In this document: positions 33,624 to 38,354 of the stretch, one piece after another | Position numbering within the stretch: position 1 is the first letter of the stretch | How the letters are laid out: each line of letters begins with the position of its first letter | DNA from: Candidatus Bathyarchaeota archaeon | GTDB taxonomy: Archaea > Thermoproteota > Bathyarchaeia > Bathyarchaeales > Bathycorpusculaceae | Length of the DNA stretch: 64,000 bases | Assembly: GCA_963775465.1 (NCBI GenBank) | Contig: CAVZIW010000006.1 | Span: 128,001 to 192,000 of the forward strand | Direction of reading: 5' to 3' | Position numbers and translations under genes: made by a program | The notes under the pieces: model-generated | Seen by the model: the letters and a program-made list of their open reading frames with translations, nothing else | Databases searched by the model: none | What the model was told of the DNA's origin: nothing

Positions 33624-34139
33624 TTAGCGTTTGCCCCTGTGGTAAGTTTTTGCTATCTTGTTTTTGATGAAGCCAATTACGCTAGGAGTAAATATGGAAA
33701 GCGACGCCAAGGCAAAGTTTAACGGGAAAACCATTGGGTATTCAAATAGATTCCCACCGTATGACCCCATGATATTTTGGAGGTTACCCCAAAGCTGAAA
33801 GAGTGACCAGAGGCTTGTCCACAGCAATGCGCCTCCAAGTCGAGCTAAATATTTTTGCTTTCGAGTGAATCCTTCTTTGTGAAGGTTCGTGTATAGAATT
33901 TCTCCTGCAACTGCTCCTGCGCCTCCTGGAAAAAAGGCGTTAACCAGAATCTTCTCCACTAAATTACCTGGAATATAGTGATCAACCCATGGAACTGCAA
34001 GCAAACTTAAACCGGGGAGTAGAACGTTGCCTGTTACTACTCGAACCAAAACTGGTAGCGCGTATATGACTGCGCCGCCAATTTGCCAAACCCAAAATCG
34101 TTTCGACCTAAACAAGTTTGCAATTGCATTCAAGCGCAT
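33624..34139 (-). CDS. Membrane hypothetical protein (possibly co-transcribed with citG)
   Basis: Hydrophobic ORF; NAFFPGGAGAVAGE motif. Confidence 0.7.
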   Translation of the reverse strand: MRLNAIANLFRSKRFWVWQIGGAVIYALPVLVRVVTGNVLLPGLSLLAVPWVDHYIPGNLVEKILVNAFFPGGAGAVAGEILYTNLHKEGFTRKQKYLARLGGALLWTSLWSLFQLWGNLQNIMGSYGGNLFEYPMVFPLNFALASLSIFTPSVIGFIKNKIAKTYHRGKR

Positions 34140-34213
34140 AGCAACTAAGAATTCTTGATTATATAAAAAACCTTTCAGCAATAAAGAGAAGAAGTCATCG
34201 CTAATAGTGTCTG

Positions 34214-35161
34214 TTAAGGGCGATAACCGTTAAGAGTCGCTAAGGCTAGTGCAGAGGCAGTTAAATCCGCCGTTGTTCCCGGGTTGCATTTGTTTCCTGA
34301 GGAGCGGAGTTTCTTGTCAAAGGCTTTAAGACTTTTTCTTCCCTTGATTGTCTCGAGTCCGCCGAGTTCTAGCACAATTTTTGCTTCTGATGATACTTCA
34401 AGGGCTTTTTCTTTGCCGACTTTTCGGGCTATGAATGTGTCTGGTCGTGTTGAAAGGATTTTAAGGAATGTATGTACGATTGTAACGTTTAATGGCTTAT
34501 GATTCAGTTGTTGCTCTAAGTAGGGATAGGCCAAGTCAAAGGTTACAGGGTAATTGTTAACCCATTCGTGACAAATATCATCGTAGTCTTGAGCTAACTT
34601 GAATACTTCAAATAATCCAACATTTTCCTTAATCAACCGCTCTTTTGAGTTTGGGTTAGAAACATCCAAATCGGGTGCACCGCCTAAACCACTTGGATTT
34701 GCAATATCCACTGCTTCATACAGATGCACTGAATCCACAGCGCTTGTGGATTTAACTACTGTTTTTAGGTTTCTGCGCATAACTGAAAAATCAATAGCTG
34801 TATCTTTTTTTTGCGCCGTCATGCCAGCAGCGACCGCTAGAGGTACAAGCAGCATAATAGTTCCCAAAATCGTGTTGCCTCCTCGCTGCCAAACTGCAAC
34901 ATTCATTGCACAAACTTTAATCAACTCACCAACACCGACTTTGCCTGCCTCAAGCCTGCCTTCTAATACCTCCACACCGCGTTGAGCTGCTTTTTGAAAT
35001 GTAGGTCCAACTGCAACCGCAGAAGCCAAAAAATGCTCCGCTCTGGTTCCTTGAAAACCTGTTTCAAAACCCACGTTTCCAGGTTTTTGAACGCTTACCT
35101 CAAGAACGGTTGCTAACTGTAGACAGCGCGATATGTTTTGGGTTTTTTCGCAGTTACTCAT
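34214..35161 (-). CDS. citG: CitG family triphosphoribosyl-transferase (archaeal, H4MPT-linked type)
   Basis: LEVSVQKPGNV, NTILG, DTFIARK, NPGTTADL. Confidence 0.9.
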   Translation of the reverse strand: MSNCEKTQNISRCLQLATVLEVSVQKPGNVGFETGFQGTRAEHFLASAVAVGPTFQKAAQRGVEVLEGRLEAGKVGVGELIKVCAMNVAVWQRGGNTILGTIMLLVPLAVAAGMTAQKKDTAIDFSVMRRNLKTVVKSTSAVDSVHLYEAVDIANPSGLGGAPDLDVSNPNSKERLIKENVGLFEVFKLAQDYDDICHEWVNNYPVTFDLAYPYLEQQLNHKPLNVTIVHTFLKILSTRPDTFIARKVGKEKALEVSSEAKIVLELGGLETIKGRKSLKAFDKKLRSSGNKCNPGTTADLTASALALATLNGYRP

Positions 35162-35233
35162 TGATAGCTCTAGCTATTCTGGTTCAAAAAAGCTTTATTA
35201 AAGTTTTTAGGCTTCAACCTTGAAGCGTTTATT

Positions 35234-36250
35234 ATGATGCCTCGAGAAGGGGACTTAATCAAAACAAAAAGCGGTGTAGTCTTTGATGTTAAGGGACTTA
35301 TTCATCCACCAAGTAAAATTATTGCGTTTCCACGCTTTATTCCATCGCCCGAGGGTACCCGAAAAGGCAAAAATGCGACTTATGGCAAAATTTACAGTCT
35401 CGGTGACCGGTTCAATTATCTGCAGCAGAACCATCCTGACCTCATAGTTTTTGACCCTGTTTTCGGTGAAACTCTCTGCGAAGTGCCCTTTAGCCATATT
35501 GCCACGCACTATCGGCCAACAGAAAAACTCGCTTCACTTCTCAAAGCTAAACATCTAACAGAACTCGAAAACAAGGCTTTACAGCTTGCGATAAGGCTAA
35601 AAGAAAAAGCCAAAATTCCATGGAGCGCTATTGGTATTTCAGGTTCGATCATGGTGGGTTTAACTAATGAAGCCTCAGACATTGACCCCCTTGTTTATGG
35701 CACAGAAAATAGCCAAAAAGCATACATTGCACTGCAGAAGCTCCGTTGTGAAGCGGATTCAGACTTCAAACCCTATACTCAAGATGAACTCCACGATCTC
35801 TTCGACTTTCGTTCGAAAGATACACAGATGAGCTTCGAAGACTTCGCAGTAGTCGAAAGTCGTAAAGCTTTCCAAGGAAAATTCATGAAAACCGATTACT
35901 ACATTCGATTTGTGAAAGATTGGAGTGACCTCAATGAACAATATGGCGACATGTGTTTCAAAAACAGTGGTTATTCAAGAATAGTAGCCACCACAGCTGA
36001 CAGTTCCAACGCACTTTTCACTCCCTGCACTTACAAACTAAAAGACGTGCAAGTGCTTGAAGGACCCAAACTTGCACCAATTGAGGAAGTGGTGTCTTTT
36101 CGCGGAAGATTCTGTAAACAAGCCTTCGACGGAGAAAAAATTGAGGCGCAGGGCAAAGTTGAGTTAGTGACAAACAAGAAAAATACTGCGAAACATTACC
36201 GTTTAATTCTAGGCAATAAGCCTGCCGATTATATGGTGCTATTGCGTTAA
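35234..36250 (+). CDS. Pol-beta-like nucleotidyltransferase, paralogue A (COG1665-like)
   Basis: EGD..FDVKGLIHP; GISGSIMVG...SDIDPLVYG; C-terminal beta-rich domain. Confidence 0.85.
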   Translation: MMPREGDLIKTKSGVVFDVKGLIHPPSKIIAFPRFIPSPEGTRKGKNATYGKIYSLGDRFNYLQQNHPDLIVFDPVFGETLCEVPFSHIATHYRPTEKLASLLKAKHLTELENKALQLAIRLKEKAKIPWSAIGISGSIMVGLTNEASDIDPLVYGTENSQKAYIALQKLRCEADSDFKPYTQDELHDLFDFRSKDTQMSFEDFAVVESRKAFQGKFMKTDYYIRFVKDWSDLNEQYGDMCFKNSGYSRIVATTADSSNALFTPCTYKLKDVQVLEGPKLAPIEEVVSFRGRFCKQAFDGEKIEAQGKVELVTNKKNTAKHYRLILGNKPADYMVLLR

Positions 36251-37320
36251 TGAATTACTTTTAGGACTTGTTCGTAGTAGCGTGGGCAATAAGTAAGGGT
36301 GATTTGGCTGAAACTATCCTTTGGAGAATCAATCTCCTCTAAGTTGCCTTCCACGACTATGATTTCGTCTTTTTTGGCTTGTTGGCGGAACTCCTCCATA
36401 TAAGAGAAGATACGCGTCACTCCCATTGCCTCTTTTGGACCGCTTAACACCTCTAAGGGTTCTATGCCATATACCGATGGAATAAACGGTGAATCCTCGT
36501 CGGTGGTTACGCGGGCTCGGATTCTTGACCAACCCCTCTGCATGATGTGTGCCTTGGGGTTATATTCCGATTTGATTTCGTTCCAAGCTTTCACAGGCTC
36601 AAACTCAGCCTTAATCACTCTGCCACTATCTTTACGGTCATCATACAAGCCGTAAATCATCTTGCGGCGTTGATGCCACACAAAATCTTTAACATCAAAG
36701 TTTTTGAATCGCCAATCTTTACCTTTCATGACTTCATAGGATTCAAACTCGTTTTTTAAACCAGAATTGTTGTCAGCATAAAGTTCACTCATGGTTTGGC
36801 AAATTTTTGCGTTTTCTTCTTTGCCATAAATAGTAAAATCAATGTCTGAATATTTTGGGTGATGAAAACCATGGAGCATGGATCCGAAAACGCCGAAACT
36901 TTTTGAAGACACACCTGAAATTTTAGTCGTTATACCCAGGACCTTTTCCATTGCTGATAACAAGGGATCAATTGGTCCTGTCTTTAGCAGTTCTTCTAAA
37001 CGTGGTTGTGGTTGTCTGGCTTCAATGATTAAGTTTTGAGGAACGCCAACGATTCTTAACCCCAGCATTTCATGGTTAACAAGGTAATGAGGATATTTTT
37101 TTGTGACGAGTTTCATGCCTTCGTCATTATAGAATTTGTAGTAAAGTTCGCCTCTGCCTTCTCTGGGCGCCCGTGGATCTGTTGAATGGAAAATCTTTGA
37201 GGAAGCATATTCAGCATCACAGATGTAGCTGTCTTTGGGGTGGCTGTAACCGAAGACTCGGAAAATTATGCCTTCGGCTGTTTGAATAGCATCGCGGTCG
37301 CGCAGGTTTAGATTGGCCAT
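36247..37320 (-). CDS. Pol-beta-like nucleotidyltransferase, paralogue B
   Basis: [21 protein letters not shown]...[12 protein letters not shown] at 37320 overlaps the stop of paralogue C. Confidence 0.85.
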
Positions 37321-38354
37321 ATGTATTCTTCTTCTGAAGTGGCTGTTCCGACAACAACTTGGTAGAAGACGCTGCCGTCTTTGATGCTTTGGGCTTTTTC
37401 GAGGGTGCCTGCGACTTTTATTTGTTGTCCAGCTCTTGCAACGTTTCGGTAGCAACCGATGTTTGAAGTAACGATGGTTGGTGTTTGTTCGAGGGCAATT
37501 TCACTTTGGGCGTCTTGTGGTTGATAGTGGCTTATTCTGTAGATTGCAGGTCGATACATCGTTTGTGTGTCACTGCAAACTGTTGCGGTAAATCTCAGCT
37601 GGGAAAGAGGCGTGAAAGTATAATCGCCGTATTGAATTTTTATTTCATCAGGTTTCTTGGTTGCATTGTACATCCATATTTTGCCCTGATATTTTCCTAC
37701 AAACTTTCGGGCTGCTTCGATGCGGTTGCCCGCGATGTATGTAAATTTCGCTTCATTAACAAGACGCTGTATGGCTTGTTCAACTTGGCGGAAGTTTTCT
37801 GTGCCATAAACGACAAAGTCTATGTCTGATTCAGGTGCATGCATCTCCAATGCAATTGAACCATGAATGCCCAAATCACTTTTTGGAACACCTGCTTCTT
37901 TGGAGACTATATCAATTAGTTCAAGTGCTAGTGATTGGAGGCTATCGGGGTTCTTTAGGTTCTGTAGCCAAACGAGGCGATCTTTGGGCACGAATACTTG
38001 CTCGATTTTTTCCAGAGGTGCCGTTATTAGTTCTTTGCTTCGGGTCTGGTCGTAAAATAGGTAGTCGGGGAAAGTTTTTCGGAATGCTTCGATGAATGTT
38101 TGATAGTTTTTAGCAGTGTACAGTTTTTCAGCGCGAAAAAGCTGGCTGGTCATTGGGTTTGTACCAAAACGCCATGTACGTGAGAGCATTTCCACTTTGA
38201 AAAGTGCTTTGTACTGAGCTGGAATATACTTGAGAAATGCGAAGACACGGTCGTCGGGGTGTTCATACCCAAAAGTGTTCATGATAAAACCGTCTTTAGT
38301 GACGAATGTGTCTCCATCCATCGGCGTCCAAATTTGTGGTTCTTCTTCCGTAAT
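37308..38354 (-). CDS. Pol-beta-like nucleotidyltransferase, paralogue C (start ATT 38354 or ATG 38321)
   Basis: [20 protein letters not shown]...SDIDFVVYG. Confidence 0.85.

Follow-up and report, generated by a model that had tools for sequence, protein, structure and literature searches.

A CitG-like gene and three diverged nucleotidyltransferase genes in a Bathyarchaeota genome, a conserved cluster linked to methanopterin genes

A 64-kb stretch of the genome of a Candidatus Bathyarchaeota archaeon from a wetland (C6:128001-192000) contains a gene for a CitG-like protein and, beside it, three genes for diverged nucleotidyltransferases (NTases), here named A, B and C; the gene for methenyl-tetrahydromethanopterin cyclohydrolase (mch) lies close by. 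We refer to the whole stretch as the window, and coordinates are those of the window; the host genome measures 2.4 Mb and is 92% complete. These genes are a conserved and uncharacterised enzyme set, linked to CitG and to methanopterin genes in this genome and in others.

Methanopterin serves as the central one-carbon carrier in methanogens and anaerobic methane oxidisers, as well as in methylotrophic bacteria and many archaea not yet in culture; it contains an alpha-ribofuranosyl 5-phosphate esterified to hydroxyglutarate. To our knowledge, no genes have been assigned to the enzymes of the late side-chain steps, that is, the addition of ribose phosphate and of hydroxyglutarate. The product of CitG is an alpha-linked 5-triphosphoribosyl compound, and CitX and MdcG are Pol-beta-type transferases. 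Here, we describe the cluster and its proteins, follow them through the relatives of the host and through its phylum, and weigh the chemistry that they might carry out.

The cluster and its proteins

The CitG-like gene (34214-35161, minus strand; 315 amino acids) is transcribed divergently from the gene for NTase A (35234-36250, plus strand; 338 amino acids), and the two share an intergenic region of 72 bp (35162-35233). This spacer holds a single AT-rich, near-palindromic box (35193-35203), 36-37 bp from each start codon, which, judged by eye, may be a shared archaeal TATA element. The gene for NTase B (36247-37320, minus strand; 357 amino acids from its ATG) converges on that for A, so that their stops overlap by 4 nt (36247-36250), and the gene for NTase C (37308-38321, minus strand; 337 amino acids) lies upstream of B, with its stop overlapping the B start by 13 nt (37308-37320). 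The overlap of C stop and B start measures 13-19 nt in all 33 of the related loci in which both genes were picked, and B and C are translationally coupled. A longer TTG frame of B, extending to 37455, was rejected since orthologues back the shared ATG start; alignment of orthologues likewise sets the start of C at 38321, position 38354 being inside the same open frame but upstream of that start. The sole repeats near the cluster are the DNA of the SDID..YG motif common to the paralogues. The mch gene (41095-42090, minus strand; PF02289, E 1.6e-106; TIGR03120, 351 bits against a cut-off of 228.8) stands 2.8 kb from C; its product uses the cofactor, and the gene is often found near the cluster.

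A sequence-only reading of the window had proposed a citG gene with three adjacent, diverged paralogues sharing N-terminal G..HP, GS and SDID motifs, and had given the 72-bp spacer, the 4-nt overlap of the A and B stops, the overlap of B and C and the distance of about 3 kb to mch, all of which we confirm. The extent that it gave, 33624 to 38354, is too wide at both ends, the left end taking in a separate open reading frame (ORF) of 185 amino acids and the right end lying beyond the start of C.

The CitG-like protein matches PF01874 with 227.8 bits against a cut-off of 27 (E 2.7e-67), over positions 2-283 of the 284 in the profile (282 covered). It falls well below the cut-offs of the NCBIfam equivalog models for CitG and MdcB (NF002315, 53.5 against 280; TIGR03132, 41.6 against 282; TIGR03125, 33.2 against 272), whose matches are limited to the C-terminal third of the protein, and it aligns with Escherichia coli CitG over its C-terminal 101 residues only, at 26% identity. 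We place it, as a divergent sequence, in the ATP:dephospho-CoA triphosphoribosyl transferase family. A Pfam scan of 13 ORFs at 28.6-42.1 kb and of 38 further ORFs of at least 130 amino acids found no citrate lyase, malonate decarboxylase or acyl-carrier family in the window, ORFs below 80 amino acids lying outside the scan. Such genes were also missing, by Pfam, from 204 neighbours of the cluster genes in other lineages.

NTases A, B and C are mutually 27% identical, and all three have the N-terminal G..HP, GS and SDID motifs together with several common C-terminal residues. B (26.4 bits) and C (25.2 bits) score above the PF01909 (NTP_transf_2) cut-off of 21 and A (16.8 bits) below it; NCBIfam holds no relevant match for any of them. 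The family has the signature of the Pol-beta superfamily, hG[GS] followed by DxD on the next strand. Eight residues are invariant in all 127 aligned members (in B numbering: G143, G146, S147, D159, D161, G166, G325 and E328) and twelve nearly so (F20, G24, H27, P28, Y38, Y79, P104, S158, Y165, P281, Y284 and S306).

An exhaustive profile search returned 1384 clusters (at 50% identity) with E<=0.001, 944 with E<=1e-10 and 398 with E<=1e-30. The database names of close and distant relatives go no further than 'predicted nucleotidyltransferase', 'nucleotidyltransferase domain-containing protein' or 'hypothetical protein', and, among ten clusters looked up, two representatives (P0235 and P0264) are recorded as coming from Asgard metagenome-assembled genomes (MAGs). 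One representative of 505 amino acids (P0195), present on two contigs of which the longer measures 59.6 kb, is a fusion in which a bacterial-type HPPK (PF01288, 3e-40; residues 8-134) precedes an NTase of the family (residues 174-503). No longer fused forms (647-2000 amino acids) were found, which is weak evidence. A 769-amino-acid ORF (L124:1850-4159, on contig C77 of genome G157) joins a family member to Peptidase_M20, and could be either a real fusion or the product of a lost stop on a contig of 5.8 kb. Two loci (L031 and L064) carry the A-B-C cluster at 70-72% identity under the names of bacterial MAGs (Limnocylindrales and Acidoferrum), probably through mis-binning.

The family extends beyond the archaea. 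A tblastn search with A found full-length relatives on 21 Streptomyces plasmids, at 24-27.5% identity over 86-93% of A, and in the 15 plasmid rows listed the match spans an NTase gene and a phosphotransferase gene. On the two plasmids that were opened (NZ_CP108499.1, L128:8064-10017; NZ_CP109257.1, L129:8061-10017) the NTase gene overlaps an upstream gene of the APH family (PF01636).

Conservation of the cluster and its link to methanopterin genes

We compared 41 related genomes from the genus and order of the host, with distances counted by hand from place tables. The NTase family is present in 37, usually as three or four clustered copies, and CitG in 35; four genomes lack both (G004, G028, G032 and G034), two have NTases only (G009 and G033), and none has CitG only. 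Both are present in 35 relatives, and in 29 of these CitG has an NTase within 5 kb. A second set comprised 80 Bathyarchaeia loci, some of them cut by contig ends, which were built around A orthologues (49-97% identity) with an alignment of the three paralogues as query; here tblastn located B in 74 of them, C in 72 and CitG in 66, and 38 carry mch no more than 8 kb from A. The usual order is mch, citG, A, B, C, often with mch directly beside citG. Because the cluster recurs in relatives, its arrangement is not due to chance.

For the phylum as a whole we drew an even sample of 151 genomes at least 85% complete, which are related to each other and thus not independent, and cross-tabulated them by hand with a family cut-off of E<=1e-10. 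The NTase family is found in 71 and CitG in 67: 64 have both, seven the family only, three CitG only and 77 neither, so that both are present in 64 of the 74 genomes with either. By taxonomic family, about 20 have both, ten neither, two NTases only and one a weak CitG match only. Among the 64 genomes that have both, 21, spread over nine families, place the two within 5 kb of each other; the arrangement could not be read in six. Three complete genomes of one family (f29; 1.8-2.7 Mb) have a single NTase gene, directly upstream of CitG. The linkage to citG, on which the sequence-only reading leaned, is thus conserved both near (29 of 35 relatives) and far (21 of 58 determinable genomes of the phylum).

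The distribution also follows that of methanopterin genes. RFAP synthase (TIGR00144) is found in 54 of the 151 genomes, 50 of which have the NTase family, and mch in 37, 36 of which have it. Either marker is present in 70 of the 71 family-positive genomes, the exception being G157; 21 family-positive genomes have no RFAP synthase match, and all of these except G157 carry mch. Of the 77 genomes that lack both the family and CitG, two alone show a marker: G034 has mch, and G130 a weak match to RFAP synthase. The family is therefore not distributed independently of citG and methanopterin genes. Genome G034, from the same order as the host and 98% complete, has mch but yields no match for RFAP synthase, CitG or the NTases, which might reflect salvage of the cofactor, the use of other enzymes or a gap in the assembly. 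Copy number tracks the pathway as well: mch-positive genomes have two to five NTases, and families positive for RFAP synthase and negative for mch have one (f16, f29 and f37) or two (f22, f27 and f36).

Gene neighbourhoods were surveyed with Pfam at 29 hand-picked loci, which supplied the 204 neighbours mentioned above, many of them unrelated housekeeping genes. In G153, an HMPTM-type radical SAM pterin methylase, DUF1152, two NTases, CitG and DUF447 face MptA (GCHY-1) and MptE. In G057, RFAP synthase, MptA and MptE are a few kb away from CitG and DUF447, and an NTase immediately precedes RFAP synthase in G174. Genes of one-carbon metabolism accompany the family in G106 (NTase, NTase, ftr, NTase, mtd, fwdD/B/A, mch) and in G161 (fwdA-like, GXGXG, mch, NTase, and, beyond these, CitG and another NTase). 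Elsewhere, two NTases adjoin genes of the AA_kinase, Hydantoinase_A and ATP-grasp families (G056), or an NTase stands in one string with DUF1464, CitG and a weakly matched metallophosphoesterase (G122). Taking the neighbourhoods and the co-occurrence together, we consider it very probable that the cluster is involved in the biosynthesis of a methanopterin-type cofactor.

A locus in the single-copy lineage of G151 (L088:8658-10189) has an NTase followed by a class II aldolase and a D-2-hydroxyacid dehydrogenase, with a gene for a chorismate-binding enzyme 3 kb off; the dehydrogenase could be a source of a hydroxy-acid acceptor, this being a single case.

The host genome itself contains RFAP synthase, DUF447, CitG-like, mch and two HMPTM-type radical SAM genes, and its DUF447 and RFAP synthase genes stand together about 6 kb before the start of the window. 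A search of the whole host genome gave no MptE-like (PF01973) match, and the pterin diphosphokinase step may be performed by another type of enzyme. Two membrane proteins flank the genes described here. That encoded downstream of citG (33624-34181, minus strand; 185 amino acids) has no Pfam, NCBIfam or PADLOC match, and in 19 of the 80 Bathyarchaeia loci the 8-kb flanks contain a homologue, a loose linkage. The other (42286-42921, minus strand; 211 amino acids, with no family match) adjoins mch, and a homologue accompanies mch in 23 of the 80 loci; it may be a transporter tied to the cofactor. Farther upstream in the window, a polyferredoxin gene is followed by one for an 818-amino-acid FAD/NAD-binding, 4Fe-4S and MvhD/FlpD protein (3079-6479, plus strand), the latter resembling HdrA-MvhD. 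The sole Rfam matches in the window are four tRNA genes (15108-15182, minus; 16408-16483, plus; 30468-30542, minus; 62183-62257, minus), of which that at 30468-30542 is the only one near the cluster.

Orthogroups and fold of the nucleotidyltransferases

A maximum-likelihood tree was built from 64 sequences, namely the three of the window and 61 ORFs of at least 280 amino acids from loci in 28 chosen genomes, a split gene in L114 being left out. It resolves four orthogroups, with support given as ultrafast bootstrap / SH-aLRT: A (20 sequences, 100/98), B (10, 100/100), C (7, 100/100) and D (27, 99/98), and A, B and C are together separated from D (37, 99/98). The three NTases of the window fall into A, B and C as named. 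G146, D159 and D161 are kept in all 64 sequences and thus in all four orthogroups. The orthogroups are old, and, as the sequence-only reading had supposed, the paralogues are not the result of a recent duplication.

Lineages with a single copy have D, and those with two have A and D, as a rule side by side or overlapping; among the lineages sampled, B and C are restricted to those with mch. Orthogroup A is the type found beside CitG in Bathyarchaeia and, elsewhere, fused to HPPK in one protein, the NTase part of P0195 scoring best on the hidden Markov model (HMM) of group A. Assigned to their best-scoring group, the 150 listed representatives divide into 83 of A, 13 of B, 15 of C and 37 of D, with two ambiguous. 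Most likely, the orthogroups differ in acceptor or intermediate, or act as hetero-oligomers.

The fold was examined in an AlphaFold model of B built from the 127-sequence alignment, which reached a predicted local distance difference test (pLDDT) score of 96.5 and a predicted template modelling (pTM) score of 0.92; a model from the single sequence reached a pLDDT of only 30. As modelled, B is composed of an N-terminal beta domain, a minimal Pol-beta NTase core and a C-terminal OB fold.

Aligned with VIA-align, the core (residues 114-248) superposes on TUT7 (8oef; Z 7.8, root-mean-square deviation (rmsd) 3.4 over 88 aligned residues) and Trf4 (3nyb; Z 7.7, rmsd 3.8 over 91), values of Z below 8 being the background range of the tool. 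Further matches, also below 8, are 6go3 (Z 7.4), 9j8p (in the range Z 7.4-7.8) and the toxin MenT1 (8an4; Z 7.3). As a group, the core matches are non-canonical RNA nucleotidyltransferases and Pol X enzymes including TdT.

The C-terminus matches SSB (3ulp; residues 258-357, Z 7.3, rmsd 2.6 over 82 residues) and 4dam (residues 262-357, Z 7.0, rmsd 2.2 over 79 aligned), both with Z in the range common for unrelated models, followed by MCM N-domains, RPA and the anticodon-binding domain of AspRS (5gro, Z 6.0). The model thus makes a C-terminal OB fold likely, in agreement with the beta-rich, OB-like C-terminus read from the sequence alone, and does not imply nucleic-acid binding. As all Z values fall in the common range, we take them as assignments of fold and not as evidence of function. 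Foldseek with the B model returned nothing at E<=0.001, TiaS appearing weakly at E 0.076, and sequence searches against solved structures gave nothing significant. The OB domain of B is acidic, with an isoelectric point (pI) of 5.2 and a charge of -4.3; across the family, the pI of the whole protein ranges from 4.9 to 9.9.

Proposed chemistry, its rivals and known systems

On balance we favour, by a modest preference, a reading in which the cluster is the side-chain machinery of a methanopterin-type one-carbon cofactor, the CitG-like protein making a triphosphoribosyl donor and the NTases forming the phosphodiester of the tail. First, the CitG-like protein would move a 5-triphospho-alpha-D-ribosyl group from ATP to a pterin intermediate, at the free terminal hydroxyl of its aminophenyl-ribitol part, with release of adenine. 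The NTases would then use this ribosyl triphosphate as their 'NTP' (nucleoside triphosphate), joining its alpha-phosphate to a hydroxyl acceptor with release of pyrophosphate, and so create the tail phosphodiester; in methanopterin the acceptor would be (S)-2-hydroxyglutarate. This is the logic of CitG and CitX, with a small hydroxy acid replacing the serine of a carrier protein. We infer both reactions, their order and their substrates from the CitG/CitX precedent and the structure of methanopterin, and, as no relation to CitX is detectable, propose that the NTases work like CitX rather than that they are members of its family.

Several findings weigh against this scheme. D, the most widespread group and the only one in single-copy lineages, is missing from the host genome, which carries A, B and C; no simple scheme of one group for one step fits. 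Seven genomes, 95-100% complete, have the family with no CitG match (G083, G033, G157, G075, G048, G102 and G091), three have CitG without the family (G053, G171 and G060), and CitG and the NTases are not neighbours in 37 of the 58 determinable genomes; outside Bathyarchaeia, this is true of most genomes. No CitX or MdcG Pfam match was found in A, B or C at E<=0.01, MdcG being checked by Pfam alone, and hhalign of the 127-sequence profile with E. coli CitX gave a probability of 0.9%. The fold neighbours of B act on nucleic acids, both for the core (TUT7, Trf4, TdT and MenT) and for the C-terminus (SSB, RPA and the AspRS OB domain). For the two Streptomyces plasmids the gene tables, which are incomplete, list neither CitG nor any methanopterin gene within 9 kb, and this branch shows that the scaffold is not confined to the methanopterin pathway. 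Full-text searches, with subscription journals outside their scope, returned neither a literature assignment of these genes nor a link between CitG-like genes and methanopterin biochemistry.

The strongest rival keeps the pathway and changes the reaction. The NTases might adenylylate or otherwise activate a phosphate or a carboxylate, or act like a pyrophosphokinase on the pterin branch, leaving the CitG product unused. Gene context and co-occurrence back the pathway rather than one reaction within it, HPPK, the fusion partner, is an enzyme of the early pterin branch, and both the seven genomes without CitG and the pairing of the Streptomyces branch with a kinase instead of CitG accord with such an alternative. 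Against it, CitG is the tightest and most widespread partner of the NTases, adjacent to one in nine families and co-occurring with them in 64 of the 74 genomes with either, and the CitG/CitX precedent offers a complete and economical route to the known structure of the cofactor. We regard this alternative as rather unlikely, while granting it more weight than those that follow.

A role in RNA metabolism, with the NTases as terminal nucleotidyltransferases or tRNA modifiers, the OB domain holding single-stranded RNA and the CitG-like protein supplying a ribosyl-triphosphate donor, seems improbable. It draws on the likeness of the core to TUT7, Trf4 and MenT1, on that of the C-terminus to SSB, RPA and the AspRS anticodon-binding domain (Z 6.0-7.3), and on the weak TiaS match. 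These values are all below 8 and in a range common for unrelated models, however, and the OB domain of B is acidic; moreover, the informative loci show cofactor neighbours and not genes of translation or RNA processing, one member is fused to HPPK, and the 77 genomes of the phylum sample in which no match to the family was obtained and CitG is also missing have methanopterin markers in G034 and G130 alone.

We also rejected two further explanations, on the evidence of equivalog cut-offs, neighbours, synteny, PADLOC and phage searches. In one, the cluster would put a phosphoribosyl-dephospho-CoA-like prosthetic group on a serine of some unrecognised carrier protein; the pairing of a CitG-family gene with Pol-beta-type transferases does recall citrate lyase and malonate decarboxylase, but no lyase, decarboxylase or acyl-carrier gene is found among the window ORFs of at least 130 amino acids or the 204 neighbours elsewhere, the CitG-like protein scores under the CitG/MdcB cut-offs and the NTases have no similarity to CitX or MdcG, which makes the idea highly improbable. 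A defence or toxin module of MenT-like or CD-NTase-like type, suggested by the weak MenT1 likeness (Z 7.3) and by the branch on Streptomyces plasmids, is scarcely credible given that PADLOC hits are sub-threshold only (E 0.006, to a generic NTase motif), that tblastn with A had no match in 50,697 phage records, and that the whole class keeps the cluster in stable synteny as a core feature, with a distribution that tracks a metabolic trait.

The reading as tail-forming machinery of a methanopterin-type cofactor stays ahead of these rivals. The sequence-only reading is partly supported. It had named two computational outcomes that would speak decisively against it, a loss of the citG linkage in other genomes and a spread of the family unrelated to citG and tetrahydromethanopterin genes, and neither was observed. 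Of the targets that it offered for the NTases, gene contexts and the HPPK fusion speak for a pterin side chain, and protein or RNA targets have in their favour only a generic likeness of fold; its suggestion that the NTases consume a ribosyl triphosphate made by CitG is retained as part of the scheme above.

A broader proposal, which we offer tentatively and rate at somewhat under even chances, is that orthogroups A-D constitute a new class of triphosphoribosyl-cofactor:acceptor phosphotransferases with an N-terminal domain, an NTase core and an OB fold. Together with the CitG-like protein they would build a ribose-phosphate-hydroxyacid tail, paralogues or heteromers setting its head-groups, and the Streptomyces branch would have reused the scaffold for another phosphate-linked small molecule. 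If true, paralogue-specific head-groups would explain the diversity of archaeal 'modified folates'. For a gap in the pathway, the cluster provides named candidate genes that can be cloned, and a proposed mechanism that is explicit in its chemistry and open to falsification; the gene identities would complete the reconstruction of the pathway in metagenome-derived archaea, help to predict the cofactor variant of each lineage and offer targets for methanogen-specific inhibition.

Three known systems invite comparison. PF01909 proteins and RNA nucleotidyltransferases (TUT7, Trf4/TRAMP and TUT1) share hG[GS] and DxD with the family, and match the core of the B model at Z 7.4-7.8, within the background range; they differ in that only 88-100 core residues are matched and no listed structure covers both the core and the OB domain, and the context here is that of cofactor biosynthesis. 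The NTases of the two Streptomyces plasmids are full-length members of the family: they keep HP, GS and SDID, and the family HMM matches them through positions 5-315 of its 342, with E values between 5e-53 and 7e-54. Each gene overlaps that of a partner which, like CitG, is of a kind that puts phosphate on a substrate. The partner is a kinase and not CitG, and in the alignments to the HMM the invariant glutamate of the archaeal OB domain is not aligned to a glutamate there.

The pairs CitG with CitX and MdcB with MdcG differ from the cluster in that no lyase, decarboxylase or carrier was found with the latter, whose acceptor is presumed to be a small molecule, and its NTases are about twice the size of E. 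coli CitX (183 amino acids), with extra N-terminal and OB domains. They are alike in that a CitG-family gene (PF01874) is paired with Pol-beta-type transferases bearing GS and DxD, and, as proposed here, in their two-step logic. CitG/CitX-type chemistry would thereby be extended from the prosthetic groups of proteins to a soluble cofactor.

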